Source of the DNA: Blastocatellia bacterium
GTDB taxonomy: Bacteria; Acidobacteriota; Blastocatellia; UBA7656
NCBI GenBank assembly: GCA_036277095.1
Contig: DASUNP010000067.1
Location: 67,551 to 131,550, forward strand
Reading direction: 5' to 3'
Length of the DNA stretch: 64,000 nucleotides
Part shown: in pieces, positions 28,658 to 44,758 of the stretch
How the letters are laid out: each line of letters begins with the position of its first letter
Position numbering within the stretch: position 1 is the first letter of the stretch
Made by a program: the position numbers and the translations under genes
Notes under the pieces: model-generated
The model's database searches: none
What the model was told of the DNA's origin: nothing
The model's input: only the letters and a program-made list of their open reading frames with translations

Positions 28658-28990
28658 GTGGTTTCGCGCATCTACGCAATCCGGGAGGGCATTAAGCAAA
28701 ACGAAATGGTCATCCCTTTTTCCACGCGGATATCTATTCCGCCGGACGTGCTTGTGTCCGCGTTAGCAGGCGAGTCTGTCTTACTGAACCTGAAGAGTGA
28801 GAAGTACTTTGGCCTGGACGAAATGGGGACGCGCATGTGGGGCGCGCTTACTTCGTCCAGATCGATTCAAGAGGCGTATGAGATTCTGCTGGCGGAATAC
28901 GATGTAGAGGCCGAGCGATTGCGCCGCGACCTGAGCGATTTAATAGAGAAGCTCGCCGAGCAGGGACTAATAGATGTTCACCATGAATAA
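28658..28990 (+). CDS. lasso peptide biosynthesis B1 protein (PqqD-family RRE)
   Basis: 110 aa; PqqD-like SVLLNLKSEKYFGLDEMGTRMWGAL ... ; first gene of a B1-B2-C series. GTG start in the track; the ATG at MVIPFST is an alternative. Confidence 0.8.
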   Translation: MVSRIYAIREGIKQNEMVIPFSTRISIPPDVLVSALAGESVLLNLKSEKYFGLDEMGTRMWGALTSSRSIQEAYEILLAEYDVEAERLRRDLSDLIEKLAEQGLIDVHHE

Positions 28991-29447
28991 ATGGCGCAAA
29001 TTCATCGGACTGTCGGCACGAGAGCGATGGCTGTTGTCGCAATCGCTCGTGCTGTTGCCGTTTGCTGCGGCGGCCTTGTCTGTGATGGGGCTCAGGAGAT
29101 ATCAGAGACTGATGGATAGATTCTCGCGCGCCATTAAGCCGGATGTCGCCGGGGACGAGCGAGAGCTTCGCGACCGAGTTCGTAAGACGGCCCGCCTGGT
29201 AGAGGCGGCGAGAAGGTACGGGCCTTACCGTGCGAAGTGCTTGCCCGAATCGCTAACCCTGTGGTGGCTTTTGCGCCGGCAAGGGATCGAAAGCCAGGTC
29301 AAATTCGGCGCGCGCAAAAATGATCGCCGGATGGAAGCACATGCCTGGGTGGAGTTCGAAGGAGTTCCGCTCAACGACACCACAGATGTCATGGAGCGTT
29401 TCAAGCCTTTCGAGCCCGCCGTCCTGCCCGAGGAGTTGAAGACATAA
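28974..29447 (+). CDS. lasso peptide biosynthesis B2 protein (transglutaminase-like leader peptidase)
   Basis: 157 aa; Cys (AKCLPESLTLWWLL), His (EAHAWVEF) and Asp (LND) of the catalytic triad; 17-bp overlap with B1. Confidence 0.85.
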   Translation: MFTMNKWRKFIGLSARERWLLSQSLVLLPFAAAALSVMGLRRYQRLMDRFSRAIKPDVAGDERELRDRVRKTARLVEAARRYGPYRAKCLPESLTLWWLLRRQGIESQVKFGARKNDRRMEAHAWVEFEGVPLNDTTDVMERFKPFEPAVLPEELKT

Positions 29448-31306
29448 TGAGCGGCATTATCGGCATCGTCAATCTGGATGGCAGACCGGTCAGCCGGGAA
29501 TTGTTACGCCGGATGACAGACTTCATGGCCTATCGCGGCCCGGACGCGCAACAGATTTGGAGCGCGGGGCACATCGGATTCGGCCACGCGATGCTGCGCA
29601 CGACCAGAGAGTCAATCAATGAGCGCCAGCCTCTGAGCCTGGATAGAGAAGTTTGGATTACTGCGGACGCGCGAATCGATGGCCGGAACGAGCTGATCGG
29701 CAAATTAGAGTCTAAAGTCGCAGCCGACCTCGCAGGTGTTACGGATGTCGAGCTAATTCTTCACGCCTACAACGCCTGGGGCGAAGGATGTCTGGAACAT
29801 CTGATAGGCGATTTCGCCTTTGCGATATGGGATGGGCGGAAGCGGCGATTGTTTTGCGCTCGCGACCATTTCGGGGTGAAGCCTTTTTACTATGCGCACG
29901 TAGATAATAGTTTGATATTCAGCAACACGCTCAATTGCGTGCGATTGCACCCTGCGGTTTCGGATGAATTAAACGAGCGAGCCATCGGCGATTTCCTGCT
30001 CTTTGGTCTTAATCAAGAATTCAATACAACGACATTTGCTGACATCAAGCGTCTGCCCCCTGCCCACTACTTGCTATTGTTGGCTGGACGAAAGCAGGCA
30101 CGTCGTTACTGGACCTTACCTACGGAGGAACAAATCCGGTACAGGCGCGATGACGAATATGTTGAGCATTTCAAATATCTATTGCGAGAAGCGGTTGGTG
30201 ATAGGCTTCGCGCTAAGAAGATCGCCGTTAGTATGAGCGGTGGGCTCGATTCCACATCAGTGGCGGCAATTGCTAAAGAAGTATCATCTGAGAAACTCGA
30301 TCTGCAAGCCTTCACTATGATTTATGACAGGTTGATACCTGATCAAGAGCGGTACTATTCAGGATTAGCAGCGGAAGGGCTTGGCATCCCGATTCACTAC
30401 CTTGTATTGGACGACTATAAGTTGTATGAGCGATGGGGTTGTCCAGAACATCGTTTTCCTGAGCCGATGCATTTCCCACTGTCAGCATTCGTTTCAGATC
30501 ATCTAATGCGAATCTCATCGCACAGCCGAATAGTTCTGAGTGGCGATGGCGGTGACCCGGCACTATATTTTTCGCAGGCGTATTTTGCTCAACAGCTAAA
30601 GAGGTTTCGATTTTGGCCTGTAGCTTCGTTTATAGCGCGATACGTGCGAACCTATCGGCGGTTTCCAAAACTCGGTTTCCGCACAACGCTGAAGCGCTGG
30701 GCAGGGACTTACTTGGAGTGGAAACATCCTTATCCAATTTGGGTCGAACAGGTTTTTGCGGACCGCTACAACCTGCAAGCGAGGCTGGAATGGGTGAGCA
30801 AAGTATCAGGACCGATTCATCCGACTCGCCCGGAAGCCTATAATTTCCTCACTATGATTGATTGGCCGAACACTTTTGAGTGCGCAGACCCGGGGGCGAC
30901 ATCTATTCCGGTCGAATATCGTTATCCATTTTTTGATCTCCGTTTAGTAAGCTACTTATTGGCAATCCCTCCCTTACCCTGGTGTGCGCACAAGGAAATA
31001 GTTCGCAGGGCGATAAAAGGGTGGTTGCCGGACCCGGTGCGGCTCCGGGCAAAAACGGCCCTGGCCGGAGATCCTTACACTGAACTTATAAAGCAACCCG
31101 ATTCAGACTGTATAGATCGGTTCTCTCCGATGGCCGAATTAACCAGATATATCGATGTAAATGCCATCCCACAGATTGCTCAAGAAAAGGATCCATATAA
31201 GTTATGGTTGAATACTCGTCCAGTTAGTTTAAACTACTGGCTTCGGGATTATAGATCAGTGGGAATTGCCGCAAACAAGGAGAGTTGCTATGAAATCGCA
31301 AGATAA
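29447..31306 (+). CDS. lasso peptide isopeptide-bond-forming cyclase (asparagine-synthetase-like, C protein)
   Basis: 619 aa; AsnB-like N-domain (MSGIIGIV...) and PP-loop SMSGGLDSTSVAAIA; TAATG overlap with B2. Confidence 0.85.
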   Translation: MSGIIGIVNLDGRPVSRELLRRMTDFMAYRGPDAQQIWSAGHIGFGHAMLRTTRESINERQPLSLDREVWITADARIDGRNELIGKLESKVAADLAGVTDVELILHAYNAWGEGCLEHLIGDFAFAIWDGRKRRLFCARDHFGVKPFYYAHVDNSLIFSNTLNCVRLHPAVSDELNERAIGDFLLFGLNQEFNTTTFADIKRLPPAHYLLLLAGRKQARRYWTLPTEEQIRYRRDDEYVEHFKYLLREAVGDRLRAKKIAVSMSGGLDSTSVAAIAKEVSSEKLDLQAFTMIYDRLIPDQERYYSGLAAEGLGIPIHYLVLDDYKLYERWGCPEHRFPEPMHFPLSAFVSDHLMRISSHSRIVLSGDGGDPALYFSQAYFAQQLKRFRFWPVASFIARYVRTYRRFPKLGFRTTLKRWAGTYLEWKHPYPIWVEQVFADRYNLQARLEWVSKVSGPIHPTRPEAYNFLTMIDWPNTFECADPGATSIPVEYRYPFFDLRLVSYLLAIPPLPWCAHKEIVRRAIKGWLPDPVRLRAKTALAGDPYTELIKQPDSDCIDRFSPMAELTRYIDVNAIPQIAQEKDPYKLWLNTRPVSLNYWLRDYRSVGIAANKESCYEIAR

Positions 31307-31421
31307 AACAACTGCGAAGAAAGATTATAATACCCCCAAGCTGTTCATCTATGGAAATATTTCTCAGCTCACACAGAATATAACCGACATGGGGATGAAT
31401 GATAACCCGACTATGAAGACT
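31290..31421 (+). CDS. lasso peptide precursor (A peptide), 43 aa. It is absent from the ORF track (under 60 aa).
   Basis: MKSQDKTTAKKDYNTPKLFIYGNISQLTQNITDMGMNDNPTMKT. The leader fits the lasso consensus Y-x2-P-x-L-x3-G-x5-T-x exactly (Y13..T28-Q29). An AAGGAG RBS lies 8 nt upstream. The gene overlaps the C gene's 3' end by 17 bp. Predicted core NITDMGMNDNPTMKT, with Asp9 as ring acceptor. Confidence 0.7.
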
Positions 31422-31483
31422 TAGCAGTTCGTTGCTCATCACAGATAGCATCTGAAGCTGCTCAATGTCTATTCGTTAAGATC

Positions 31484-32509
31484 ATGTATTTGGCCTATTC
31501 CCTTTACGGCTTGTGCCTGCAAACTAATCTACCTCTTCCTGGCTTAATTCCCCGACCCTCTGCCTCGAAAATAGATGCTCATGTGTGGCTACAATTTATA
31601 CCAGATGCTTTGCTTGGTAAGAGTGAGACACAGGCAAAGCTTGTGTATGCCAGCCAAAATCAGGATGAACTTGGAGAGCCTGTGCTGAAAGCCTGGGAGC
31701 TAATGGACGGGAGCTTTTTCCGGCTGCGTTACAGCGATGGGACGGAGTTCGTTATCGACCGCGAAGGTGCTCAGATATGGTGCACTTGGCCGGATAATTT
31801 AACGATTGAGGACACAACCGTTTATCTTCTTGGTCCAATATTCGGATTTGTACTACGTCTTCGCGGAACGCTCTGCTTGCATGCAAGCGCTATCGCCGTA
31901 GGAGAATATGCAATCGCAATTGTAGGTCCCGCCGGGACTGGAAAATCTACAACCGCCGCAGCGCTTGCGAAGTCAGGATTTCCAGTATTGACAGATGATG
32001 TATTAGCGCTTACCGATATGGATGGCATATTTATGGCTCAACCCGCCTATCCGCACCTGCGCTTATGGCCGGCATCAGTGAATATCTTATATGGTAAACC
32101 GGACGCCCTGCCGAGATTGGTGCCGGGGGATTCATTATGGGATAAACGCTACCTGAATCTCACCGAGAATGATTATATGTTTCAACGCCATCCGCTCCCT
32201 CTCGCGTCAATATACCTGTTAAGCGAACGCACTGAAGATTCAGCAGCTCCATTTATCGAATCAATGTCTGCAAGCGCCGGCTTGATGACTCTTGTTACGA
32301 ATACTTACGCGAACCATCTTCTGAATACTTCGAGGCGCGCCCAAGAATTTGGCTTACTGAGCCGCATCGCATCCAGCCTGCCGGTGCGACGAGTAATACC
32401 TCATGCCAGCCCGTTCTTTCTGTCAAAACTCTGTGAAGTGATCATCAATGATTTTCATCAACAGGTTGAATCGAATAGAATGAGCACGGCGGAAGAAGCG
32501 CAACTCTGA
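31484..32509 (+). CDS. HPr-kinase/phosphorylase-like kinase (lasso precursor kinase homologue)
   Basis: 341 aa; P-loop GPAGTGKSTTAAALA followed by the LTDD motif typical of the HprK C-domain; this family is known in phosphorylated lasso clusters (paeninodin type). Confidence 0.7.
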   Translation: MYLAYSLYGLCLQTNLPLPGLIPRPSASKIDAHVWLQFIPDALLGKSETQAKLVYASQNQDELGEPVLKAWELMDGSFFRLRYSDGTEFVIDREGAQIWCTWPDNLTIEDTTVYLLGPIFGFVLRLRGTLCLHASAIAVGEYAIAIVGPAGTGKSTTAAALAKSGFPVLTDDVLALTDMDGIFMAQPAYPHLRLWPASVNILYGKPDALPRLVPGDSLWDKRYLNLTENDYMFQRHPLPLASIYLLSERTEDSAAPFIESMSASAGLMTLVTNTYANHLLNTSRRAQEFGLLSRIASSLPVRRVIPHASPFFLSKLCEVIINDFHQQVESNRMSTAEEAQL

Positions 32510-32569
32510 ATAAGTAGTGCCTGAAATACGGCGCTGTGATTCTTCAGCAGAGGAAAGCTTTTTGTTGTA

Positions 32570-33193
32570 GTGAGACCAAAGATGCCGGACTCTGATTTTT
32601 TCACTCGCTTCGGATTCTTTGCGGTCAAAGGTTTTCTTGACACGCGATTATGCGCAAGATTTCGATCCGAGATGCTTTCAACTGCACTCTCCCCCACAAC
32701 GGTCGTAGACGCCTACACATCTCAAGACATGCTGAAAGAGAAGGTCCGCAAAAGTTTGCATGCGGAAGTCTCTCAATCATCCACATTGCTTGTAAAAGAG
32801 CGTTTGATGGCTCTAAGGGGAAAGCTGGAGAATCATTTTGAGTTGTCGTTCGACAGTTGCGAGAAGCCACAGTTCCTGGTTTACAAAGAAGGAGGCTACT
32901 TTCAACCACACAGGGATGGGGAAGACGAAGCCGGCAAGCCTGAATATATTAAGAGCCGCCAGATATCTATAGTTGTATTCTTGAACCGAGAGTCTGACAG
33001 GCCCGCGCCCAATGCATACTGCGGCGGGGCGCTGACGTTCTACGGGTTGATAGATGATCCTAAGTGGAAAAGGTATGGCTTTCAATTGAAGGGCGAAACG
33101 GGGATGCTGGTTGCCTTCAGGGCGGGGGTCCTTCATGAAGTCACGACCGTTACACACGGAACACGTTGCTCGATTGTTAGCTGGTTCTTCTGA
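32570..33193 (+). CDS. 2OG-Fe(II) oxygenase superfamily protein
   Basis: 207 aa; HxD (FQPHRDGED) ... distal His (VLHEVTTVTHG) facial triad; P4H/PhyH-like. Confidence 0.65.
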   Translation: MRPKMPDSDFFTRFGFFAVKGFLDTRLCARFRSEMLSTALSPTTVVDAYTSQDMLKEKVRKSLHAEVSQSSTLLVKERLMALRGKLENHFELSFDSCEKPQFLVYKEGGYFQPHRDGEDEAGKPEYIKSRQISIVVFLNRESDRPAPNAYCGGALTFYGLIDDPKWKRYGFQLKGETGMLVAFRAGVLHEVTTVTHGTRCSIVSWFF

Positions 33194-33223
33194 TTTCAAC
33201 CTATAGTAAACTGAGAAGTCATA

Positions 33224-34393
33224 ATGTATAGCATCACCAGCTATGGCAAGATGATTGCCGACCATGTACGCACAGAGGCTTATGCGCATGCTTTGCGTCG
33301 GGCGATAAAGCCCGACTCGGTCGTCCTCGATATCGGAACGGGGATAGGCATCTTTGCGATGCTGGCCTGTCAATTCGGCGCGCGACGAGTCTATGCCATT
33401 GAGCCGGATGATGCCGTCCAGGTTGCGCGAACGATCGCCGCAGATAACGGCTTTGCCAACCGCATTGAGTTTATTCAAGAACTCTCTTCTCGTATCACAT
33501 TATCTGAGCGAGTCGATCTGATCGTCTCTGACTTGCGGGGCGTGCTGCCTTTGTTTCGTCATCACATTCCGTCAATCATCGATGCTCGAAAGCGCTTCCT
33601 TGCTCCAGACGGCATACTGATACCACAGCAAGACACTTTATGGGCGGCAGTGTCGGAAGCCCCGGATCTGTATGAACGCTATTCGACGCTCTGGAGCGAT
33701 AATGCTTATGGGCTTGACCTCGGCGCAGCCCGGCGATTAGCGGTTAACACCTGGCAGAAAGGCCGAGTCGCCTCCGATCAGCTTTTAACGCCTCCTCAAC
33801 AATGGGCTACGCTCGATTATTATTCTATAGAGAGCGCCAACATCAGCGCTGAAATGATCTTTACCGCGATGCGCGCGGGGACTGCTCACGGCTTGAGCCT
33901 GTGGTTCGACGGCCTGCTCGCTGAAGGAGTGAGTTTTTCGAACGCTCCCGGCCAGCCCGAATTAATCTATGGCAGCGCCTTCTTCCCATTCTCTTCTCCC
34001 GTAACGCTGGCCGTCGGCGATAGAGTCTCCGTTAAGCTTTCGGCAGACCTCGTAGTCGATGATTACGTCTGGCGGTGGAATACTCAGGTGGCGGGTCAGG
34101 GCGATGAGATCAAAGCCGATTTCAAACAGTCTACTTTCTTCGGCGCGCCGCTGTCTCCGAATCAACTGCGCAAACGAGAGAGCAGCTATGTCCCTGCGCT
34201 TGATAAAGAGGGGCAGATCGACCGGCTCATCCTTTCTCTCATGAACGGGCAGAATTCTCTAAGCGATATTGCTCACACAGTTGCAACTGATTTCCCGGAC
34301 CGCTTCAAAAGCTGGCAGGATGCGCTGAACCGCGCAGGCGAGCTCTCTGTTAAATACAGCAACCGGTCCGGCCTCTCTCATGCTTCGCAATGA
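33224..34393 (+). CDS. PRMT-fold (protein arginine N-methyltransferase-like) class I methyltransferase
   Basis: 389 aa. MIADHVRTEAYAHAL and VLDIGTGIGIFAMLACQFGARRVYAIE align with PRMT motif I/post-I. The double-E loop is replaced (SDLRGV instead of SEWMGY). Confidence 0.65.
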   Translation: MYSITSYGKMIADHVRTEAYAHALRRAIKPDSVVLDIGTGIGIFAMLACQFGARRVYAIEPDDAVQVARTIAADNGFANRIEFIQELSSRITLSERVDLIVSDLRGVLPLFRHHIPSIIDARKRFLAPDGILIPQQDTLWAAVSEAPDLYERYSTLWSDNAYGLDLGAARRLAVNTWQKGRVASDQLLTPPQQWATLDYYSIESANISAEMIFTAMRAGTAHGLSLWFDGLLAEGVSFSNAPGQPELIYGSAFFPFSSPVTLAVGDRVSVKLSADLVVDDYVWRWNTQVAGQGDEIKADFKQSTFFGAPLSPNQLRKRESSYVPALDKEGQIDRLILSLMNGQNSLSDIAHTVATDFPDRFKSWQDALNRAGELSVKYSNRSGLSHASQ

Positions 34394-35589
34394 AACCGTC
34401 AAGTCGCGCAGTCTCCGGCATGATCTCTGAACACGAGTTGCTCGTATGCTGCGCCCGGACATATCTGGATTCTAAGAGCGCCGCGCGCGTTGCCGCGCTC
34501 GTTCAACAGCGAATAGACTGGGATTACCTGGTCCGAGCGGCTACACATCACAGCCTGCTTCCGCTCCTGCACTCACATCTGAGCGCAATCTGCCCCGATG
34601 ACATTCCCGGCGCCGCCTCCAACCGGCTCAAAGAGCATTCTCAGAATAACAGCAGAAACAGTCTTCTCCTCACAGGCGAGCTGATTAAGCTTCAACGGCT
34701 TTTTCAGTCTCAAGATATTCCGATGGTCCCGTTTAAGGGGCCGATCCTGGCCGCCTGTTTCTATGGCGATGTAGGGCTCAGGCAGTTTAGCGACCTCGAC
34801 CTGTTGGTCCGCAAACAGGACGTGTTCAAAGCCAGGGATATTCTCATCTCTGCTCAATACCTTCCGCGCTACCGGTTGGGCGCGACGCAACGGGCGGCGA
34901 TGGTCGAGCAAAAGTGCGAGGAGCCCTTTGACCGGGACGATAACGCTGCGACGGTCGATCTACACTGGGCAGTTATACCAACGCGATTCTCTTTCGCGCC
35001 CGATATCGCCTCGATATGGCAGGGGCTTGAGCGAGTCTCGCTCAGCGGCTGCGAGTTTCTGACGGTCGCGCCCGAAGATCTGATTATGCTGATCTGCATA
35101 CATGGCGCAAAGCATGCCTGGGAGCGATTGGGCTGGATATGCGACCTGGCGGAGTTGATTCGCGCCCGCAGAAGTTTGGATTGGAACTCAGTCATCGAGA
35201 CGGGAAGACGAAGCGGCGGCCAAAGAATTCTTTCTCTCGGTCTTTTCCTGGCGAGCGATCTGCTGGATGCGCCGCTCCCGCCGGGAGTTTTCGAAAGCGT
35301 GCAATCTGATAGACAGGTCCGGTCGCTTGCGGCGAAAGTTTATTCGAATCTCTCGCGCAGGATTGATAGACAGATAAGTGTCTTTGAAAGGGACCTGTTT
35401 TACCTCCAATCCATGAATCGCGTAAAGGATCGCGCGCATTTACTGTCGGACCATATAAAGCCGACGCCTCTCGAATGGCAGATGGTGCCGCTGCCCCCGT
35501 ATCTCTCCTTCTTTTATTATCCGCTGCGCCCTATCAGGATAATCGAGAAACACTGGCAGAGTTTAACTAAACGCATGTTATCGAAATGA
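34390..35589 (+). CDS. nucleotidyltransferase-family protein (PF14907-like 'uncharacterised NTP transferase')
   Basis: 399 aa; FSDLDLLV motif; ATGA overlap with the methyltransferase; this family co-occurs with kinases in lasso clusters. Confidence 0.6.
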   Translation: MKPSSRAVSGMISEHELLVCCARTYLDSKSAARVAALVQQRIDWDYLVRAATHHSLLPLLHSHLSAICPDDIPGAASNRLKEHSQNNSRNSLLLTGELIKLQRLFQSQDIPMVPFKGPILAACFYGDVGLRQFSDLDLLVRKQDVFKARDILISAQYLPRYRLGATQRAAMVEQKCEEPFDRDDNAATVDLHWAVIPTRFSFAPDIASIWQGLERVSLSGCEFLTVAPEDLIMLICIHGAKHAWERLGWICDLAELIRARRSLDWNSVIETGRRSGGQRILSLGLFLASDLLDAPLPPGVFESVQSDRQVRSLAAKVYSNLSRRIDRQISVFERDLFYLQSMNRVKDRAHLLSDHIKPTPLEWQMVPLPPYLSFFYYPLRPIRIIEKHWQSLTKRMLSK

Positions 35590-35668
35590 GACTGGTCAAA
35601 CCTACTCGTTGAATGTACATTGGTGATCCGAAAGCACGCGCCATGCGCCCTTAAATTAATTCGCAGAC

Positions 35669-37495
35669 ATGACGACTACCACGGCATCAATTAACAGAAT
35701 TTTTATCGCCACTTTGCTCGGCGAAATGTCGTGGAGAGTGGTCCTGGTCCTTACGCTCATGCTCTCGCTCGGCCTTATCGAAGGCATCGGGCTGATACTT
35801 CTAATCCCTCTGCTTGGGCTCACGGGCATAGATGTTCAACAAGGCGCGGTCGGCGCAATCGATAGCTTCGTCGCGTCAGCTTTCAATGTCGCGGGCCTGC
35901 GCCCGACTCTCATGTCTGTGCTGGCCGTTTATGTCGCAATCACAATTGCTCACTCGCTCTTACAACGCTGGCAAACGGTGAGCAGCGCTTCGCTTGAAAA
36001 CGAATTTGTAGATCGTCTCAGGCAGCGGCTCTATAAATCGATCACGAATGCGAACTGGCTATTTTTCTCCAGGTCGAAAGCTTCCCATTTCACTCACGCG
36101 CTCACTTCGGAGCTTGACCGTGTAGATATCGCAACCTATAGCCTGCTTGCCATAGTCGTCAACTGCGTCGTCGCCTCAGTCTACATAATCCTGGCTTTGC
36201 GTTTGTCCGTGCCGATGACGGTGCTGGTCTTCGCTTGCGGAGCGGCGCTCCTGCTCCTGCTTAAAGGCAAGATGCGAAAGGCGCGTTTGAGCGGGGAAGC
36301 TCTCTCTGATGCGACAGGGGAGATGCACTCTTCTTCGCTGGAGCACTTCGGCGGCATAAAAGTGGTGAAAGCCTATAACGCCGAACGGCGCAATATAAAG
36401 ATCTTTTCGGAGTTGACCCGTCGCGTCACGCGCATCTACGACGCCTACACGCGCGACCATGCGAATATGAAACTCTGGTTCGACGTGGGCGCTGTGCTTG
36501 TCCTGGCGGTGATTCTTTACGTCTCCATAGGGGTGGCTTCTATGCCCGCGGCGGGCGTGCTCGTCTTGATATTCCTGTTCGCGCGCATCATGCCAAAGCT
36601 CTCAACCATACAGCAGAACTATCAGCGTTACGTTCACGCGCTGCCTGCGTTCGCTGCCGTGATGGATGTAGAATCGCGCTGCCTGGCGGCATCCGACCCG
36701 GCGCCTACAGATACAGAGCCTGTGCAGTTCCGGCAGTCCGTGAGGCTCGACCGCGTAGATTTCGAATATGAGCCTGGCGGGTTTCGATTACAGGCGCTTG
36801 ACCTGACAATCGCATTCGGCGATATGACGGCTATAGTCGGCCAATCGGGCGCGGGCAAAAGCACTATAGCAGACCTTCTCCTGGGCCTGGTCGCACCCGG
36901 GCGAGGCCGTGTCTTGATCGATGACGCCGTTTTAGAAGCAAAGCTCATTAAAGGCTGGCGCGACCAGATCGGCTACGTTGCGCAGGACACTTTCTTATTT
37001 CACGACACGGTCAGGGCCAACCTGCTATGGGCGCGGCCCGAGGCAACCGAGCAAGAGTTGTGGGATGCGTTGAGGCTCGCGGCGGCAGATGAGTTCGTTA
37101 AGGATTTGCCTCAAAGACTTGAAACAGTCCTGGGCGATCGCGGCGTGAGGCTTTCGGGCGGCGAGAGACAACGAATAGCATTGGCGCGCGCGCTGCTGCG
37201 CAAGCCGCAGCTCTTGATACTTGACGAGGCCACGAGCGCGCTCGATTCAGAAAATGAAAAGCGCATACTCTCTGCCATAGAAGAGTTGCACGGCCGTCTC
37301 ACTATACTCGTCATTGCCCACAGGCTCTCTACAATCAGAACAGCGGATCACATTTATCTTATCGAACGGGGCAGATTGATCGAACACGGAGATTGGTCTT
37401 CGCTCATCACCAGGGAAGGCGGCAGGTTTCAAGCCTTCTTTAAGGCGCAGAACCTTGAAGTTGTCCCTGACACACAGAAGGTTTCTTATGATTGA
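35669..37495 (+). CDS. ABC transporter, fused permease/ATPase (lasso exporter D)
   Basis: 608 aa; 6 TM N-domain; Walker A GQSGAGKST; signature LSGGERQRIALARALL; Walker B LILDEATSALD. Confidence 0.85.
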   Translation: MTTTTASINRIFIATLLGEMSWRVVLVLTLMLSLGLIEGIGLILLIPLLGLTGIDVQQGAVGAIDSFVASAFNVAGLRPTLMSVLAVYVAITIAHSLLQRWQTVSSASLENEFVDRLRQRLYKSITNANWLFFSRSKASHFTHALTSELDRVDIATYSLLAIVVNCVVASVYIILALRLSVPMTVLVFACGAALLLLLKGKMRKARLSGEALSDATGEMHSSSLEHFGGIKVVKAYNAERRNIKIFSELTRRVTRIYDAYTRDHANMKLWFDVGAVLVLAVILYVSIGVASMPAAGVLVLIFLFARIMPKLSTIQQNYQRYVHALPAFAAVMDVESRCLAASDPAPTDTEPVQFRQSVRLDRVDFEYEPGGFRLQALDLTIAFGDMTAIVGQSGAGKSTIADLLLGLVAPGRGRVLIDDAVLEAKLIKGWRDQIGYVAQDTFLFHDTVRANLLWARPEATEQELWDALRLAAADEFVKDLPQRLETVLGDRGVRLSGGERQRIALARALLRKPQLLILDEATSALDSENEKRILSAIEELHGRLTILVIAHRLSTIRTADHIYLIERGRLIEHGDWSSLITREGGRFQAFFKAQNLEVVPDTQKVSYD

Positions 37496-37742
37496 CACGT
37501 GTAGCACTCGAAGATAGAATAGCGCCGCGTCTTTAAAGGCGCCGGTCGTCACGTTGATCTCATGACAGTGACTTCATCGCATGGCCGAATCATAAAACAA
37601 CTCCTCTCATCACTCCATCCCCAGTAACGAAATCAAATACCAGCACGACGATGCCGGTCTGTCATCAGACGGATTCGACGGCCCGTCCACCATCAGCCGC
37701 AGCCTGTACAGACCCCAGAACGAAATTGCAGGAAGGAATTCC

Positions 37743-38225
37743 ATGAGAAGAGAACCGTTCATGACGTTACCCCTGGCGAGAAGAGACGGGTTGTTAGTTC
37801 GGGAGATGAATGAAGAGATGCTGGTCTATGACCTGCAACGACATAAAGCGCACTGCTTGAACCGCCCCGCCGCTCTGGTATGGGGCCACTGCGACGGAAA
37901 GGCTAGCGTGGCTGAAGTGGCGCGGCTCGTCGGAGAGAAGATAGGAACACCGCTTGACGAAGAGACGATCCGCCATGCCTTAACTCAACTCGATCGGGCG
38001 GCGCTGTTAGAGAGGCGGATAACGCAAGCCGGTAACACTAGAAGATTATCCCGCAGACAGGCAGTGCGCAGATTGAGTGCGGCTGCGGTGGCCGCCGTGC
38101 CGATTGTGACAACCATCGTTGCGCCGCAGGCGGCAGAAGCCGCGACCTGTACACGCGCCGGGGAGACGTGCACAGGGCTGCCCTGCTGCGGCAGCGCTAC
38201 GAGGTGCTTTGTCGGCAGGTGCTAA
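37743..38225 (+). CDS. PqqD-like (RRE) domain protein with a hydrophobic/Tat-like segment and a C-terminal 6-Cys tail
   Basis: 160 aa. LVYDLQRHKAHCLNRPAALVWGHCDGKASVAEVARLV matches the PqqD fold. Then SRRQAVRRLSAAAVAAVPIVTTIVAPQAAEAA, followed by TCTRAGETCTGLPCCGSATRCFVGRC (C-x6-C-x4-CC-x5-C-x4-C). Confidence 0.5.
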   Translation: MRREPFMTLPLARRDGLLVREMNEEMLVYDLQRHKAHCLNRPAALVWGHCDGKASVAEVARLVGEKIGTPLDEETIRHALTQLDRAALLERRITQAGNTRRLSRRQAVRRLSAAAVAAVPIVTTIVAPQAAEAATCTRAGETCTGLPCCGSATRCFVGRC

Positions 38226-38234
38226 CTCTATTCA

Positions 38235-39323
38235 ATGAATAACAGCCTTGCACAGTCTCGGGGAAGTCAGATCGCCGCCGTGCTCGCAGGCTCATGGCGC
38301 GACCATCCCCCGCCCTTGAAAATATCGGGCGGCCAATTGGCCGAGATAACTTCGGCATTGCTCGCGACGGGGACCGCGCCCCTTTGTTGGAGGCGTCTTC
38401 TTCATTCTAAAACGGAAGCGCGCGCAGCCTTAGAGTTAAAAGCGGCTTACTACTTTCACACGATTCGGGCCGCCTACCACGAATATGAGGTCGAGCAGGT
38501 CTTCCGGCTGCTGCGTGCAGCGGGCTTAGAGCCCGTGCTGATGAAAGGGTGGGCCGTCGCACGACTTTATCCCGAATCGGGGCTCAGGCCATACGGAGAT
38601 GTAGACCTTTTCATCAGGCCCCGCGAGCGCCGCAAGGCTGCGGCTGTTTTAGCGAGCAATGAAGGCGTGAAACTTAACGTAGACATCGAGCATGAAGAGT
38701 TTGCCTGTGTGAGCGACCGGGCGGCGGATGATTTATGCGCTCGCTCAAAGCTTGTGACGCTGGGCGAAACGCATGTTCGCATTCTCGGCGACGAAGACCA
38801 CCTGCGTATGCTCTGTCTGCACACGCTCAGACATCACGCATGGCGACCGCTGTGGCTCTGCGACATAGGCGTTGTGGTCGAATCTTTGCCGGAAGGTTTC
38901 GATTGGGAGATCTGTCTTGGCGCAAACAAGAGGGAAGCCAACTGGGTCGCCTGCCTGGTCGAGCTGGCGAGCCAGGTTCTCGGCGTCCAACCGCGCGGTG
39001 ATTTTGTGTCGCGCGCCTCGTCGAAGCTGCCGCGCTGGGTCGGGCCCGCGCTTCTAAGAGACTGGGGCAGGTGGCACGGCCCGGGACCTGCGGAGTTGGC
39101 AGCCACGGCGTTCGTGAAGAATGTCAAAAGCCCCTCTCGAATGATTGGCGAGATCATCTCCAGGTGGGATCGCCCGATCAAGGCTACGGTCGAGATGCGA
39201 GGTCCGTTCAATCAATTTCTAAGACTTCCCTTTCAGATCTCTTACGCTCTTTCGCAGACTCCGAGGATCGCCCGACAGGTCGCGCGCGGTTTCTGCAAAG
39301 GGCGAACAGCGGAGGAGCAATGA
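38235..39323 (+). CDS. nucleotidyltransferase-family protein (second PF14907-like paralogue)
   Basis: 362 aa; YGDVDLFIRP motif; 9 bp after the RRE-Cys ORF; its stop overlaps the next gene as ATGA. Confidence 0.55.
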   Translation: MNNSLAQSRGSQIAAVLAGSWRDHPPPLKISGGQLAEITSALLATGTAPLCWRRLLHSKTEARAALELKAAYYFHTIRAAYHEYEVEQVFRLLRAAGLEPVLMKGWAVARLYPESGLRPYGDVDLFIRPRERRKAAAVLASNEGVKLNVDIEHEEFACVSDRAADDLCARSKLVTLGETHVRILGDEDHLRMLCLHTLRHHAWRPLWLCDIGVVVESLPEGFDWEICLGANKREANWVACLVELASQVLGVQPRGDFVSRASSKLPRWVGPALLRDWGRWHGPGPAELAATAFVKNVKSPSRMIGEIISRWDRPIKATVEMRGPFNQFLRLPFQISYALSQTPRIARQVARGFCKGRTAEEQ

Positions 39324-42300
39324 ACAATATTATTTCGCGTTCTATTCGACTCTCACTGGTTGCGGCCTTCTTTATGCTGTCTGCGTCTTCGCCCGCCAAG
39401 GCCCAGATCAGTCTTCCAACTGCATCGCCTTACACACAGAGTTTTGACAGCCTCTCGACATCTGCCACGGCCACGCTGCCTGCGGATTGGAGGGTTGATA
39501 AGATAGACGGGCTCGTCAGGACGGTCGGAAGCTTCACGACGGCAGGTACGGTGACCGAGCAGATCGCCGGTAACGGCATGGCTGTCAATGCAGCTAACGG
39601 CATTTACAACTATGGCGCAGGCGTGGCGAATACAGCGACTGACAGGGCAGCAGGCTGGATCTCATCCGGCACTGCTACGAGAAGCGGAAATCTGTACGCC
39701 CGGTTTATCAACAGCACTGGCGCGAGCGTTTCAAGCCTGAGCATCTCTTACGACATTGAAAAGTACCGTAATGGATCTAACACGGCGGGTTTCAGAATCG
39801 AGATGTTTTATTCATTTGACGGGGCGACCTGGACTGCGGCCCCGGCTAACTTTCTAACAAGCTTTCCAGCCGACGCAAACAACAACGGATTTGCAAGCGC
39901 CCCCGGAGTGATTGTTTCACTCACCAACCAGGTTCTCCAGGTCACAATACCAAACGGCAGCGACTTTTACCTGGCCTGGAACTACTGCGTCACCTCCGGG
40001 ACGACAACGACGAATGCGCAGGCGCTGGGCATCGATAACTTTTCCGTCATAGTCAACACCGTCACAGCGGTCGAGCTTCTTTCATTTACTGCTTCTCAAT
40101 CGGGCGATGGAGTATTGCTCGAATGGGCGACCGGGCATGAAGTCGATAATCTCGGCTTTAACATTTATCGAGAGGACGGGGGCAAGCGCGCTCGCATCAC
40201 CCCTCGGATCGTTGCGGGGTCGGCCTTGCTCGCCGGGTCCGGCAATGCTTTGACGGCCGGGCGGCAGTACAGATGGTTTGACCCCGCCCCCGGCATCGAA
40301 GGCAATATCGATTACTGGCTCGAAGACATAGACCTTAACGGCAAGGTTACGCTGCACGGCCCGATCACGCCCGCGCCCGGCGGTAAGCTATCTCTCAGGT
40401 CCGACTCGCTTCCGCTTTCGAGCGTACAGACTGATACGAGAGCGTGGCAGCGACAGGTAGTTGTTTCGAATGTCGGTAAGAATTCTCATCCGCATTCGGC
40501 TCAAGAATCTTTGAACAGTCTCCAGACCCAGTGGGAAATTGCGGCGGGCCCTGCCGTGAAGATCACGATCAAGAAAGACGGGTGGTACCGCGTGACCCAG
40601 CCCGCCCTCGTAGCCGCCGGCCTGGACCCGTCGCGCGACCCGCGCCTGCTAAGGCTGTTCGCGGACGCCGAGGAAGTGCCGATCATCGTCAGAGGCGGGC
40701 AGAAGGGGAGGCTTGAGCCGACAGACGTAATAGAATTCTACGGCGCGACGCTCGACACGCCCTCCACAGACAGGCGCGTCTACTGGCTCACGTCCGGCAA
40801 TCAGCCGGGCCGCAGAATAACCATTCTGGCGGGAGAAGCCGTCAAACCGACGGGTGGGGGCAGCTTCCCCTACACAGTCGAGAGAAAGGAGCGCAGCGTC
40901 TACTTTGCGGCGTTGATAAACGGGGAGGCGGAGAACTTCTTCGGCCCAGTAGTCACAGCCGATCCGGTCGCTCAGGAATTCCGGATCGAGAACCTCGACA
41001 AGGGATCGACCGACAAAGCCAGGCTCGAAGTGGCCTTGCAAGGCGTAACCGATGTCACAAATGTTGCGCCCGACCACAGCGTGAAAGTGAAGCTCAACGG
41101 GGTAGAGATAGGCTCTGTCGCCTTCGACGGGCAGGCGCGCAAGATTACCGAGATAATCTTCTCTAATCAATTGCTGCTCGAAGGATCAAACGACATCACG
41201 CTTGTCGCCGAAGGCGGCGAGATGGACGTGAGTCTGATAGATCACATCAGGCTCACCTACGCGCACAGATTCCGCGCGGACGGGGACGCGCTCGAACTGA
41301 GCGCCATCGGCGGAGAGCCGATAACCGTAACGGGCTTCAGCCAGCCCGCAATCCGGGTATTCGACATCACTGACCCGAACGACGTGCAAGAGATGACTCC
41401 AATAGTCGAAGCGCAAGGATCTGAATTCGCCATCACCTTCAGGGCGAATGCTTCGGGCGAGAGGCGGCTCCTCGCCCTGGTCGACCATCTTGCGCAAGCG
41501 CCTTTCACAGTCACGGCCAACCGGCCTTCGACTTTGAACCGCGCGGGCAACGGGGCGAATTTTATCATCATCACGCACGGCCTATTCGCCGCCGCGATGG
41601 AGCCGCTAAAGCGATTGCGGCAGGGCCAGGGCTTGAGCGCGACTATCGTCGACGTGGAAGATGTCTATGACGAGTTCAGCCACGGGGCGCACTCTCCGCA
41701 GGCAGTAAAAGATTTCCTGGCGCGGGCCGCGACCGTTTGGAAGAAGCGGCCCGGCTGGGTGATGTTTGCCGGGGACGCCAGCTTCGACCCGAGAGACTAT
41801 CTCAATCTGGGTGAAAGCGACTTCGTGCCGACGAAGCTCATAGACACGTCCGGGCTTGAGACGGCTTCGGACGACTGGTTGGCAGACTTCGACTCTGACG
41901 GATTGCCCGAGATGGCTGTGGGCCGCCTGCCCGTGCGCACTGTCGGCGAGGCCGGAGCGGTAATAGAAAAGATCATGGGCTACGCTCAGGCGGGCAGGGC
42001 CGAAGGCGCGTTGATGGTTGCCGACCGCAACGACGGGTATGATTTCGAGGCCGCAAGCCTGAGCGTGAAAGCGCGACTTCCTGCCGACGTAATCGCGCAG
42101 GAGGTCTTTCGGGGGAGGGTAGACGACGCGACGGCCAGGCAGCAGATCATTGACGCGGCCAGGCGAGGTCCTAAGATTGTCAACTACCTCGGGCACGGGT
42201 CGGCTGGGACATGGAGAGGGGACCTGTTGACATCGTCGGATGCCGCCGCTCTTCAGAATTCAGAGGGGCCATCGTTATTCGTGATGATGACGTGCCTGAA

Positions 42301-42565
42301 CGGATTCTTCCACGACCCTTACGGAGACAGCCTCGCCGAATCGCTGATGAAGTGCGAGCGTGGTGGAGCCGTGGCGGCATGGGCTTCGTCGTCGCTGACA
42401 ACACCGGGCGGGCAGTCGGCAATGAATCAGCGGTTTTATCAGCTCTTGTTCGCGGGCAACCTGACGCTGGGCGAGGCGGCAATGAGGGCAAAGCTCGCCG
42501 CGAGTGACACGGACATTCGCCGGACCTGGATACTGTTCGGCGACCCGACATTAAAGATCAAATAA
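39320..42565 (+). CDS. secreted C25-family (gingipain-like, clan CD) cysteine peptidase, large multidomain (start trimmed to the signal peptide Met; the track starts at 39071)
   Basis: Signal peptide MNNIISRSIRLSLVAAFFMLSASSPAKAQ; catalytic His (NYLGHGS) and Cys (MMTCLNGFF); C-terminal ILFGDPTLKIK. Confidence 0.75.
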   Translation: MNNIISRSIRLSLVAAFFMLSASSPAKAQISLPTASPYTQSFDSLSTSATATLPADWRVDKIDGLVRTVGSFTTAGTVTEQIAGNGMAVNAANGIYNYGAGVANTATDRAAGWISSGTATRSGNLYARFINSTGASVSSLSISYDIEKYRNGSNTAGFRIEMFYSFDGATWTAAPANFLTSFPADANNNGFASAPGVIVSLTNQVLQVTIPNGSDFYLAWNYCVTSGTTTTNAQALGIDNFSVIVNTVTAVELLSFTASQSGDGVLLEWATGHEVDNLGFNIYREDGGKRARITPRIVAGSALLAGSGNALTAGRQYRWFDPAPGIEGNIDYWLEDIDLNGKVTLHGPITPAPGGKLSLRSDSLPLSSVQTDTRAWQRQVVVSNVGKNSHPHSAQESLNSLQTQWEIAAGPAVKITIKKDGWYRVTQPALVAAGLDPSRDPRLLRLFADAEEVPIIVRGGQKGRLEPTDVIEFYGATLDTPSTDRRVYWLTSGNQPGRRITILAGEAVKPTGGGSFPYTVERKERSVYFAALINGEAENFFGPVVTADPVAQEFRIENLDKGSTDKARLEVALQGVTDVTNVAPDHSVKVKLNGVEIGSVAFDGQARKITEIIFSNQLLLEGSNDITLVAEGGEMDVSLIDHIRLTYAHRFRADGDALELSAIGGEPITVTGFSQPAIRVFDITDPNDVQEMTPIVEAQGSEFAITFRANASGERRLLALVDHLAQAPFTVTANRPSTLNRAGNGANFIIITHGLFAAAMEPLKRLRQGQGLSATIVDVEDVYDEFSHGAHSPQAVKDFLARAATVWKKRPGWVMFAGDASFDPRDYLNLGESDFVPTKLIDTSGLETASDDWLADFDSDGLPEMAVGRLPVRTVGEAGAVIEKIMGYAQAGRAEGALMVADRNDGYDFEAASLSVKARLPADVIAQEVFRGRVDDATARQQIIDAARRGPKIVNYLGHGSAGTWRGDLLTSSDAAALQNSEGPSLFVMMTCLNGFFHDPYGDSLAESLMKCERGGAVAAWASSSLTTPGGQSAMNQRFYQLLFAGNLTLGEAAMRAKLAASDTDIRRTWILFGDPTLKIK

Positions 42566-42877: not shown

Positions 42878-44566
42878 ATGCCAACTAAAAAAGGAACTAC
42901 TAAAAAAGGAGCTTCTAAGAAAGGGGGCTCAAAAAAAGCTCCCTCTGCAAAGAAAGCCAAGACTGAAAAAAAGACCTATAGTGTATCTGGTGAGCACCTT
43001 GTGTCGAGCAAAGTAAAGACTGGTTACATTTCTGGAGAAACGTTTGGATTGAAAGAAGTAGCTTATTCAGCGGTTGATGGTCAGGCCATCTTTGAAGGCG
43101 ATATTGTTCTTGGCAGTGTCGCGGAAATGGACGCTATCAAGAAACAGGTTGAAAACCCTCAACCGGGCGCGGAGGCTGCGGCCATCGTTGTCGGCAGCCA
43201 ATTCCGCTGGCCCGACGGCGTAATGATCTTCCGCATCGATCCCAGTCTCCCAAATCAGCAAAGAGTCACTGATGCAATTCAGCATTGGCAGACAAACAGT
43301 AACGTCAGATTCAGGCAGCGAACTACTGAAACAAACTTTGTGACTTTCACACCGGGCGGAGGATGCAGCTCTCAGGTCGGCATGCGGGGCGGAGAGCAAT
43401 TTATTACACTCGGGGCAGGCTGCACGACCGGTAACACGATTCACGAAATTGGTCACGCTGCAGGGCTTTGGCACGAGCAAAGCCGTGAAGATAGGGACAG
43501 CTTCGTCACTATCAACTTTGCTAACATTCAGCCGGGGCTGGAACACAACTTTAATCAGCACATAACGGATGGCGATGACATTGGGCCTTATGATTACGGC
43601 TCAATTATGCACTATCCCCGCAATGCGTTCGCCATCAATCCAAATGTGGATACCATCACTCCAAAGCCCAATCCCAACGTGGCTATAGGTCAGCGCACAG
43701 GCTTGAGCGCTGGTGATCTTCGAGCAATAAACTCGATCTATCAAAGAAAGGCCATCCTTGGAGAAACCAGCAGTAACGGACCTGCGCTGACAACGAGGAA
43801 CAATCAGCTTCTTCTCAGTTGGACAGGAGTTGGAAATTTGCGCCTCAACTTTATGAGTTCAACTGATGGCCTCAATTACTCTAACAAGGTGACTCTGGGT
43901 GAAGTCTCTCCGGCAGCCCCTGCCCTTGCGGTTTTCCAAAACAGGTTCATAGTTGCCTGGATAGGCGTTGGCAACAACCGGCTTAACATCTTGCAGTCGA
44001 ACAACGGGCTGAGTTGGGGCAATAAAGTAACGCTCGGCGACACGTCACAGTCGTCTCCGGCGCTTGCCGTATTAGGCAACCAGCTTTTCATCGCCTGGCG
44101 TGGCGTCGGCAATAACCGGCTAAACGTAATGCGAAGCTCAAACGGTGTAAACTGGACGGGGAAGGTTACTCTCGGCGATACAACGACATCCGGCCCTGCG
44201 CTGGCAACGCTGGGGAGTCGACTACTGTTAGGATGGCGTGGCGTCGGCAATAACCAGCTAAATGTCATACAAAGCCCTAACGGTACGAACTTCACTGGCA
44301 AGGTTACGCTTGGCGAAACAACTATCTCCAAACCTGGCCTACATGCAAGCGGCGGACGCGCTTTACTCACCTGGCAAGGAGTCGGCAATCGGTTTCTCAA
44401 CGTGCTTGCCAGTAACAACGGGACAGCGTGGACGAGCAAGCAAACCTCATCACAGACTTGTATAGATGGACCGGTGATTTCAAACCTTGGCAACCGTCTC
44501 GTCTGGGGGTGGACTGGAACCGACAACGCTCACCGTCTCAACTCTATGCTTTTCAATGTTGTTTGA
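42878..44566 (+). CDS. astacin (M12A) zinc metalloprotease with a Lys-rich N-terminal tail and C-terminal tandem repeats (start set at the Met after a strong AGGAG RBS; the track gives 42851)
   Basis: HEIGHAAGLWHEQSREDRD zinc site, then the SIMHY Met-turn. N-terminus PTKKGTTKKGASKKGGSKKAPSAKKAKTEKK. Six ~44-aa repeats (W-x-G-V-G-N-x-x-L-N ... G-x-x-W ... K-V-T-L-G) from about 43770. Confidence 0.8.
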   Translation: MPTKKGTTKKGASKKGGSKKAPSAKKAKTEKKTYSVSGEHLVSSKVKTGYISGETFGLKEVAYSAVDGQAIFEGDIVLGSVAEMDAIKKQVENPQPGAEAAAIVVGSQFRWPDGVMIFRIDPSLPNQQRVTDAIQHWQTNSNVRFRQRTTETNFVTFTPGGGCSSQVGMRGGEQFITLGAGCTTGNTIHEIGHAAGLWHEQSREDRDSFVTINFANIQPGLEHNFNQHITDGDDIGPYDYGSIMHYPRNAFAINPNVDTITPKPNPNVAIGQRTGLSAGDLRAINSIYQRKAILGETSSNGPALTTRNNQLLLSWTGVGNLRLNFMSSTDGLNYSNKVTLGEVSPAAPALAVFQNRFIVAWIGVGNNRLNILQSNNGLSWGNKVTLGDTSQSSPALAVLGNQLFIAWRGVGNNRLNVMRSSNGVNWTGKVTLGDTTTSGPALATLGSRLLLGWRGVGNNQLNVIQSPNGTNFTGKVTLGETTISKPGLHASGGRALLTWQGVGNRFLNVLASNNGTAWTSKQTSSQTCIDGPVISNLGNRLVWGWTGTDNAHRLNSMLFNVV

Positions 44567-44605
44567 TCTCTCAACTGTAAGTAATGCGTGTATCTTTGAT
44601 CAGAT

Positions 44606-44661
44606 TGACCTTGCGCGACCTGGCTACCGGAATTTTGGGTTTGTCTTAGATCGCGCAAGGT
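44606..44661 (+). terminator. 12-bp perfect inverted repeat (gaccttgcgcga / tcgcgcaaggtc) with a ~32-nt loop, 40 bp downstream of the astacin stop
   Basis: Seen directly; weak T-tract, so either a terminator or a protein-binding site. Confidence 0.3.
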
Positions 44662-44758
44662 CATCTTTCATAGCAAAAGCATTAATAGAGATCTTGCAGC
44701 GAATAGGATTTCTGATTGACAATGATTTATGGTAAGACTAGTAAAGCGAGGTTGAGGT

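Follow-up and report, generated by a model that had tools for sequence, protein, structure and literature searches.

We describe here two neighbouring gene sets in a 64-kb window from a Blastocatellia bacterium (Acidobacteriota), which serves as the reference for this analysis and whose positions give all coordinates below (Table 1). The upstream set is a lasso peptide operon (system 1) that codes, in order, for a PqqD/B1 protein, a transglutaminase-like B2 protein, an asparagine-synthase-like cyclase C, the precursor A, an HprK-like kinase, a 2-oxoglutarate (2OG)-Fe(II) oxygenase, a PRMT-like methyltransferase, a nucleotidyltransferase (NTase 1) and an ABC exporter. The downstream set (system 2) codes for a protein in which a RiPP (a peptide made on the ribosome and modified after translation) recognition element (RRE) of the PqqD type is followed by an internal signal resembling those of twin-arginine translocation (Tat) and by a cysteine-rich tail, for a second nucleotidyltransferase (NTase 2) and for a secreted C25 cysteine peptidase. 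We refer to the first of these proteins as PqqD-Cys, and to its gene with its recurrent partners as the module. Two nucleotidyltransferases of family PF14907 (NTP_transf_5) had been proposed here in an earlier, sequence-only reading of this stretch, and both indeed score above the Pfam gathering cut-off of 31.2 bits. That reading went on to take NTase 2 and the RRE protein beside it as possible extra parts of the lasso pathway, and it is this relation between the two systems that we focus on.

System 2 has the anatomy of an operon of its own. The 247-bp gap between the stop codon of the ABC transporter gene and the start of PqqD-Cys, suggested earlier as a possible host of an internal promoter, does hold a σ70-like match, TTGACA-17-TAGAAT, where shuffled sequence would be expected to give 0.8 sites at 9 or more of the 12 positions. 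Both hexamers are kept in L085 and L086, although the spacer has otherwise diverged (L-numbers denote sampled genomic loci of relatives; L085–L087 come from close relatives of the window, with 75–87% identity). The PqqD-Cys open reading frame (ORF) ends 9 nt before the start of NTase 2, whose stop codon in turn overlaps the start codon of the C25 gene (ATGA), with a GGAGGAG ribosome-binding site ahead of the latter. On the basis of the promoter-like element, the 9-nt gap and the ATGA overlap, we thus place NTase 2 in a PqqD-Cys/NTase 2/C25 operon. The C25 peptidase has a Sec-type signal, MNNIISRSIRLSLVAAFFMLSASSPAKAQ, and its motifs YLGHG and TCLNGFF are intact; it scores 214.8 bits against the PorU model, under the cut-off of 420, and is thus not assigned to PorU. 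An Rfam scan of 27–46 kb gave zero matches, and folding of the 5′ untranslated region (37521–37745) gave z = −0.05, with no sign of a structured leader RNA.

Table 1. Features of the two systems, with positions in the 64-kb window
Feature	Position	Strand	Basis or remarks
Lasso operon (system 1)	28658-37495	+	gaps between genes -17 to 79 nt
Lasso precursor, 44 aa	31290..31424	+	small ORF with GGAG ribosome-binding site; genes called at the equivalent position in L085-L087
HprK-like kinase of the lasso operon	31484..32509	+	P-loop GPAGTGKST; model matches below cut-offs
NTase 1, PF14907, 399 aa	34390..35589	+	E 2.5e-61, 207.9 bits
Promoter-like sigma-70 match TTGACA-17-TAGAAT	37492..37520	+	11/12 positions; predicted from sequence
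PqqD-Cys protein, 160 aa, probable pre-pro-peptide	37743..38225	+	family alignments
RRE/PqqD domain, aa 10-90	37770..38012	+	AlphaFold2 pLDDT >90; three strands, three helices
Internal Tat-like signal, aa 102-133	38046..38141	+	L-S-R-R-Q-A-V-R-R, hydrophobic stretch (P120, P128), A-E-A
Cys-rich tail, 27 aa, proposed mature peptide: ATCTRAGETCTGLPCCGSATRCFVGRC	38142..38222	+	C-x6-C-x4-CC-x5-C-x4-C
NTase 2, PF14907, 362 aa	38235..39323	+	E 7.4e-28, 98.2 bits
C25 (gingipain/PorU-like) cysteine peptidase, secreted, 1,081 aa	39320..42565	+	Peptidase_C25 250 bits

PqqD-Cys is built of three parts. At the N-terminal end, the RRE domain of the window protein scores 22.9 bits against the Pfam PqqD model (cut-off 23.4), while PF05402 is carried by most of its relatives. 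The AlphaFold2 (AF2) model of this domain matches, in Foldseek, the leader-bound lasso RRE TbiB1 (template-modelling score 0.71, probability 1.0), PqqD and the lasso B1 protein 6jx3, and the PqqD-domain ORF proposed ahead of NTase 2 thus has the RRE fold in its structure model. A linker modelled with low confidence separates this domain from the Tat-like signal. Across the family (93 members for signal and tail statistics, 73 for a scan with NCBIfam models), the signal has the motif [S/T]RR[EDQ][LMV][VMIL][RK][RK], with the arginine pair in 93/93; a stretch of moderate hydrophobicity, in which two prolines are conserved, comes next, and after it a small-x-small site. In 92 of the 93 members, this (−3,−1) cleavage-type site is no more than 8 residues away from the first Cys, most commonly 2 residues before it. 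The Tat model TIGR01409 is matched by 19 of the 73 relatives (the window protein has 16.4 bits against a cut-off of 16.7) and the formate-dehydrogenase Tat model formate_TAT by 18. In the AF2 model, residues 122–126 (VTTIV), directly after the invariant P120, form a β-strand, and it may be that the hydrophobic core of the signal docks on the RRE sheet in cis.

The tail that follows is short and cysteine-rich throughout the family. Tails are 25–72 residues long and contain 6 (64/93), 8, 10 or 12 Cys, one of these numbers being found in 92 of the 93 members, and in 50 of the 64 six-Cys tails the third and fourth Cys are adjacent, which is the knottin framework C-C-CC-C-C; the commonest spacing among them is C-x6-C-x5-CC-x3-C-x4-7-C. 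When 81 tails were scanned alone, the Pfam matches were only of knottin or toxin types (conotoxins, spider and scorpion toxins, Dickkopf_N and UPF0506), and some relatives exceed the curated cut-offs, with 25.6 against 22 bits for Omega-atracotoxin and 27.4 against 23.2 bits for UPF0506. The window tail is modelled with a pLDDT (predicted local distance difference test) of 74–83. Twelve-Cys tails (L016, L019 and L046) resemble two knottin-like units in tandem, for example ASCGALGTFCVDNARCCSGLCINNSCACLGNQSPCTSDIQCCSGRCGSANNKCLP. Tails from Gemmatimonadota are strongly cationic (net charge +8 to +10) and acidobacterial ones near-neutral.

The three parts of PqqD-Cys differ greatly in conservation. 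Over random pairs of relatives, mean identity is 48% in the RRE and 49% in the signal, and falls to 20% in the tail when Cys residues are left out. Paralogues at the same locus have near-identical leaders and different tails (at L003, identities of 83%, 97% and 43% for RRE, signal and tail, respectively), close orthologues have well-conserved tails, and stand-alone PqqD-Cys genes without enzyme genes also occur. A leader that is conserved and a tail that varies are what one would expect of a precursor whose functional core has diversified. A Ser or Thr ahead of the first Cys was considered as a kinase target; its presence does not correlate with that of a kinase gene (38/9 vs 26/11, p = 0.31), and the proposal is thus unsupported. 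At L087, the PqqD-Cys ORF (9616–10098) was missed by the source gene calls and the NTase gene was extended to 409 residues, which shows that automated annotation can overlook this family.

The family is large and unstudied, it bears only the NCBI name 'PqqD family protein', and we found no published description of it in the literature. The database holds 133 close relatives of the window protein, species-representative genomes hold 229, and clusters at 50% identity in a profile search number 2,015 at E ≤ 1e-30 and 5,904 at E ≤ 1e-10. Hosts are mostly Blastocatellia and Pyrinomonadaceae, and also include Gemmatimonadota, Methylomirabilota, Binatia, Nitrospinota and others; several genomes have more than one copy. 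The survey covered 84 loci with genes for PqqD-Cys relatives, from Blastocatellia, Gemmatimonadota, Methylomirabilota and other groups; 77 cases could be evaluated for an NTase-2-type neighbour, 81 for an upstream kinase and 70 for the full architecture. An NTase-2-type gene lies directly downstream of PqqD-Cys in 48 of 77 cases, and a gene for an HprK-related kinase of about 275 residues directly upstream in 44 of 81. The commonest architecture is kinase-PqqD-Cys-NTase (34/70), and tandem triads are also seen. Homologues of the C25 peptidase (40–50% identity), on the same strand and either upstream or downstream, occur in 30 of the 84 loci, some of which contain tandem C25/PqqD-Cys/NTase arrays. 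Searching in reverse, from NTase 2 homologues, recovers the same neighbours (L089 and L093). The wider context is also recurrent, with a GT4 priming transferase, Wzy_C and a TPR-CBM protein accompanying kinase, PqqD-Cys and NTase in what is an exopolysaccharide (EPS) locus, and the majority of PqqD-Cys loci lie inside EPS gene clusters.

None of the 84 loci has a match to lasso B2, to the lasso kinase K or to the oxygenase. Asn-synthase-like proteins near relatives at L053 and L082 were considered as lasso cyclases and rejected, as they are XrtA/PEP-CTERM amidotransferases (532–572 bits with TIGR03108 against 241–257 bits with the lasso cyclase model). A lasso operon adjoins the module only in the close relatives L085–L087. 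The sequence-only reading had itself named, as grounds against its proposal, the possibility that NTase 2 and the RRE-Cys ORF belong to the downstream C25 operon only, with no effect on lasso products; as far as the operon goes, translational coupling to C25 bears this out.

Comparison of the two NTases leads to the same separation. They were described earlier as divergent copies, and their pairwise identity is 23% across 231 residues (E 2e-7). They also belong to different clades, as the 120 best homologues of each score about 280–290 bits against their own query and about 45 bits against the other, and the two lists have zero sequences in common. In a 61-sequence alignment, invariant residues of NTase 2 include K104, G105, D122 and D124 (the DxD motif), D150 and H153, and like NTase 1 it thus has catalytic motifs of the pol-β type; its AF2 model has a pLDDT of 89 and gives weak NTase-fold matches (5uvd, ANT(2'')-Ia and TglT). 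A search of PDB sequences with both NTases gave no match at E ≤ 1. NTase 2 is thus probably an active enzyme without a close solved relative, judged by its conserved residues and modelled fold.

Taken together, we consider it probable, though by no means assured, that the window holds two independent peptide-maturation systems that are neighbours by chance at the edge of an EPS locus, with PqqD-Cys being the substrate of NTase 2, its RRE serving as the leader and its tail being exported as a knottin-like peptide. What the data show is the gene anatomy with its two operons, the two NTase clades, the assigned folds, the conserved partnership of the module genes, their separation from lasso genes elsewhere and the conserved leader as opposed to the variable tail. 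The most likely role of PqqD-Cys is that of a precursor, with an RRE of its own, to an exported peptide; that the tail is released, that its export depends on Tat and that NTase 2 (and a kinase) modify the protein we would hold with moderate to lower confidence.

Other readings have to be weighed against this one. NTase 2 and the second RRE could be extra lasso tailoring parts, providing a second or alternative phosphate decoration or serving a second lasso-type substrate, as had been suggested from the sequence. Adjacency and orientation of the two sets are kept in L085–L087, and an HprK-related kinase is missing from the window module but present in the lasso operon; this local synteny and the lack of a kinase leave the reading some weight. 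A precedent also exists in which paeninodin-type clusters co-localise with two RRE-dependent systems (PMC13381572). We nevertheless regard it as very improbable, given that lasso genes accompany the module in 0/84 loci from other lineages, that the module has a conserved promoter-like element of its own and that NTase 2 is of a different clade from lasso-associated NTases. Moreover, translation of NTase 2 and of C25 is coupled, B1 already provides the lasso operon with an RRE, and no second lasso-type precursor ORF is seen in the window. The proposal of a second phosphate decoration on the lasso peptide is thus not upheld by a module that recurs in 84 loci with lasso genes at none of them. The proposal of a second substrate recognised through the second RRE comes closest, among those alternatives, to the evidence, except that the RRE-Cys ORF probably encodes the substrate itself and not a chaperone. 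A chaperone role is in fact what the characterised PqqD and RRE proteins would suggest, as all of them bind a separate peptide. PqqD-Cys would then be a membrane-anchored RRE chaperone that presents such a peptide to the kinase and NTase, with the Cys-rich tail as a permanent extracytoplasmic anchor or sensor. Its weak kinship to the PqqD chaperone of the HPr-rel-A system, a stand-alone protein, is in line with this: 41 of 73 family members match TIGR04353 (the window protein has 15.3 bits against a cut-off of 35). The hydrophobic segment could also be membrane-spanning. On the other hand, no conserved small ORF accompanies the module in the surveyed neighbourhoods, the hydrophobic segment has two conserved prolines and ends in an AxA-type site in 92 of 93 members, and tails that are hypervariable, tandem-duplicated and found stand-alone look like products rather than anchors. 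This makes a chaperone unlikely.

The neighbourhoods themselves, with their GT4 priming transferase, Wzy_C, TPR-CBM protein, Wza and Wzz-type tyrosine kinase, raise the question of whether the module serves exopolysaccharide or cell-surface biogenesis, with NTase 2 and the kinase acting on a glycan or lipid carrier and PqqD-Cys being a regulator or scaffold. The window itself has a 24-gene EPS locus that ends at 27940, and according to NCBIfam, both HprK-related kinase A and the PqqD protein that partners it lie close to PEP-CTERM/exosortase loci, which also counts for such a role. However, kinase, RRE and NTase act on peptides in the two relatives that have been studied (PMC6993621, PMC13381572), several loci have no EPS genes nearby (L002, for example, lies beside arginine biosynthesis genes), and the diversifying knottin-like tails would be left unexplained. 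We thus think a purely surface-biogenesis role quite improbable. The reading of PqqD-Cys as a self-contained precursor has difficulties of its own. The Tat score of the window protein is marginal and the signal is internal rather than N-terminal, which is atypical; the tail of the window protein is without any Pfam match, knottin models included; the tail has zero invariant Ser or Thr residues; synteny of the module with the lasso operon is retained in three related genomes (L085–L087); and we found no precedent in the literature for an RRE inside a precursor, which means that the RRE of PqqD-Cys might bind another peptide instead. The window and its close relatives also lack the module's own kinase: a profile of the module kinase finds only the lasso kinase in the window (E 7.7e-4). 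Either NTase 2 works on a protein that has not been phosphorylated first, for instance by transferring a nucleotidyl or phospho-alcohol group directly, or it depends on a kinase in trans, for which the lasso kinase 5 kb upstream is possible.

With PqqD-Cys as the substrate, the sequence of events might be as follows. System 2 (37492–42565) would be expressed as its own operon, and the RRE of PqqD-Cys would act in the cytoplasm and in cis, as a leader built into the protein, to recruit NTase 2, a step proposed at lower confidence by analogy with the gene sets of paeninodin-type lasso and linear polyphosphorylated peptide (LPP) clusters. In most other genomes, it would also recruit the dedicated kinase of about 275 residues. 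NTase 2, together with the kinase where present, would modify PqqD-Cys before export (again by analogy, and at lower confidence). The internal twin-arginine-type signal would then carry the C-terminal 27 residues across the membrane, a route that would permit export of a pre-modified or pre-folded domain. A cut at the A-x-A site, by signal peptidase or by the secreted C25 peptidase, and oxidation of the released tail to three disulfides in a knottin-like arrangement are both steps to which we would give moderate confidence. A more far-reaching and tentative version, which we are inclined to doubt, is that the module defines a new class of ribosomal peptide, in which the cis RRE docks both kinase and PF14907 NTase and possibly masks its own twin-arginine signal until the modification is finished, Tat exports a phospho- or glyco-decorated bacterial knottin, and C25 or signal peptidase frees it.

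RRE, internal Tat-like signal and knottin-like core had not been seen in combination before, and we found nothing in the literature linking bacterial knottins with RRE, HprK or PF14907 genes. If the tail is released, this family would supply small disulfide-knotted peptides of bacterial origin that are naturally diverse in sequence, and it would be an example of leader recognition built into the substrate. Were the new-class version true, soil Acidobacteriota and Gemmatimonadota would hold a large unexplored family of knottin-like peptides tied to EPS loci. The module also bears on the question of what PF14907 enzymes act on, as the presumed substrate is encoded beside NTase 2, here without a kinase. 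A tool-less reading, and probably automated callers of biosynthetic gene clusters too, would fuse the two systems and predict a doubly decorated lasso peptide.

Several known systems resemble the module in part. LPP clusters (Popov et al. 2026) often have a lasso cluster of the paeninodin type as neighbour and lie within polysaccharide loci, and deletion of LppN had no effect in a heterologous host (PMC13381572). They share with the module an RRE-dependent system, an HprK-like kinase, an uncharacterised NTP transferase and, if our proposal holds, a leader cut of the signal-peptidase type (PMC13381572). LPP clusters, however, have a discrete RRE protein, a YxxPxVLxHQxIxFETxxS leader, a SipW-like peptidase and an MsbA-type pump, whereas the module has a fused RRE, an internal Tat-like signal, a C25 peptidase and a Cys-rich core, and its window copy has no kinase. 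Neither the window operon nor the recurrent neighbours contain a SipW-like peptidase, a discrete RRE, an MsbA-type exporter or a precursor with the YxxPxVLxHQxIxFETxxS motif, and the module thus lacks every defining LPP feature except the NTase (and, elsewhere, the kinase). The HPr-rel-A system (TIGR04352/TIGR04353), on which we found no publication, has the same logic of kinase, PqqD protein and PF14907 NTase in PEP-CTERM/EPS neighbourhoods. The best NCBIfam match of the module kinase is in fact TIGR04352, HprK-related kinase A, but the module scores well under the equivalog cut-offs (60–66 against 200 bits for the kinase and about 15 against 35 bits for PqqD-Cys), and the TIGR04353 model covers 74 residues without signal or Cys-rich tail. 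As for the tails, they have the C-C-CC-C-C framework and loop lengths in the range of inhibitor cystine knot peptides such as omega-conotoxins and spider toxins, a likeness read from sequence; they differ in being rich in Gly, Ser, Thr and Ala, mostly uncharged, and at the C-terminus of a bacterial protein that contains an RRE. The KNOTTIN database lists 'bacterial knottins' without structures (PMC5753296). Finally, dual Sec-Tat membrane proteins have an internal twin-arginine signal after Sec-inserted helices, which sends a domain at the C-terminus across the membrane and is kept as a membrane anchor (PMC5449189). PqqD-Cys likewise has an internal twin-arginine motif and a moderately hydrophobic segment ahead of a C-terminal domain, but here the signal comes after an RRE domain that is soluble, and at its end is an AxA site of the cleavage type.

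The upstream operon is a lasso peptide operon of the paeninodin/pseudomycoidin type, and its cyclase scores 404 bits against the lasso cyclase model. The precursor leader ends in ...YNTPKLFIYGNISQLTQ and is followed by a core of 15 residues, NITDMGMNDNPTMKT. In an alignment of the precursors from the window and L085–L087, the leader motif Y..P.L..YG.I..TQ is invariant, position 9 of the core is Asp and the C-terminus is KT; a nine-residue ring between N1 and D9, leaving a six-residue tail, is predicted from these sequences. Residue 1 of the core is Asn in the window and Ser, Ala or Gly in the orthologues. The kinase scores 21.5 bits with Hpr_kinase_C, 34.7 with HprK_rel_A and 27.1 with ScmC, each below cut-off. 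The start of NTase 1 overlaps the methyltransferase stop by 4 bp, which agrees with its earlier placement in the operon of kinase, oxygenase and methyltransferase, and its orthologues hold the equivalent operon position in L085–L087. Relatives of about 40% identity lie in lasso clusters at two of three sampled loci (L090 and L092), and these distant clusters also repeat the set of methyltransferase, oxygenase and NTase.

In pseudomycoidin biosynthesis, a kinase phosphorylates the C-terminal Ser, and the PF14907 protein PsmN is needed for the addition of +162 Da hexose units to the phosphate; the D134A/D136A mutant of PsmN is inactive (PMC6993621). This is the precedent on which the sequence-only reading had drawn for a hexose on the phosphate, and it stands. 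NTase 1 is likewise a PF14907 protein with a DxD motif (K116/G117 and D135/D137, the latter corresponding to D134/D136 of PsmN), and the window operon resembles those of pseudomycoidin (PsmN/PsmK) and paeninodin (PadeK) in its HprK-like kinase, split B1/B2, C protein and ABC exporter and in a precursor that ends in a hydroxyl amino acid (PMC6993621). It differs in that this residue is Thr and not Ser, in the addition of a PRMT-like methyltransferase and a 2OG-Fe(II) oxygenase, and in a host that is an acidobacterium and not one of the Bacillota. From the lasso clusters around its relatives, the precursor with its conserved Lys-Thr end and the PsmN precedent, we conclude that NTase 1 tailors the lasso peptide as an enzyme of the PsmN type. 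By analogy, the HprK-like kinase would most likely phosphorylate the conserved C-terminal Thr of the core, and NTase 1 would most likely decorate the phospho-Thr terminus next, as PsmN does. NTase 2, on the other hand, shares with PsmN only the Pfam family and the DxD motif, its relatives being found with lasso genes in 0/84 loci.

The lasso cluster is unusual both in its core, with the short tail and Lys-Thr end, and in its tailoring set of kinase, 2OG oxygenase, PRMT-like methyltransferase and NTase. The oxygenase is replaced in L085 by a protein of the metallo-β-lactamase (MBL) fold and is absent from L086 and L087. At L091, a solitary NTase-1-type gene (8001–9233) lies beside a group II intron reverse transcriptase and an integrase, with a gene for a C25 peptidase of 1,418 residues 4 kb away on the opposite strand. 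Methyltransferases 33–42% identical to the PRMT-like enzyme of the lasso operon are encoded on the minus strand at L012 (627–1613), L033 (636–1622) and L040 (528–1751), where they lie antisense next to C25/PqqD-Cys arrays without lasso genes.

Two further proteins accompany the module at some loci. One, of 515 residues, is a MauE protein fused to two thioredoxin-like (AhpC-TSA/Redoxin) domains and is encoded beside the NTase gene at L018, L025, L054, L057 (5327–6874) and L081; in four of these five loci its gene lies between NTase and PqqD-Cys, and the tails there have at least 8 Cys. MauE and MauD are required for maturation of the disulfide-rich small subunit of methylamine dehydrogenase, and such a neighbour thus fits an exported, disulfide-bonded tail; the arrangement suggests that the fusion is a dedicated disulfide-forming partner. 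The other is a CxxCxxCC-domain (PF03692) protein of about 390–400 residues, weakly similar to the flagellin lysine-N-methylase FliB, which is found in or beside the module at seven loci (L012, L033, L043, L053 at 8663–9874, L064, L077 and L084).

Ahead of the lasso operon lies the EPS locus, whose 24 co-directional genes occupy 1–27940 on the minus strand, divergent from the lasso operon, and include at least five GT4 glycosyltransferases, a GDP-mannose 4,6-dehydratase and a tyrosine kinase of the Wzz/GNVR/ParA type (25526–27940). Both peptide systems of the window thus lie at the edge of an EPS locus, as do the LPP and lasso clusters reported in Bacillota. Downstream of the C25 gene, 42851–44566 codes for an astacin/LegP-like zinc metalloprotease (289 bits with the LegP model, cut-off 300) with a Lys-rich N-terminus and, at the C-terminus, about seven repeats of about 47 residues (LN..S.DG..W..KVTLG.TS..PALA). 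The next gene, at 44759–45115, codes for a YscW-like lipoprotein, and GC content at 44000–48000 is 0.43–0.49, compared with about 0.57 in the rest of the window.

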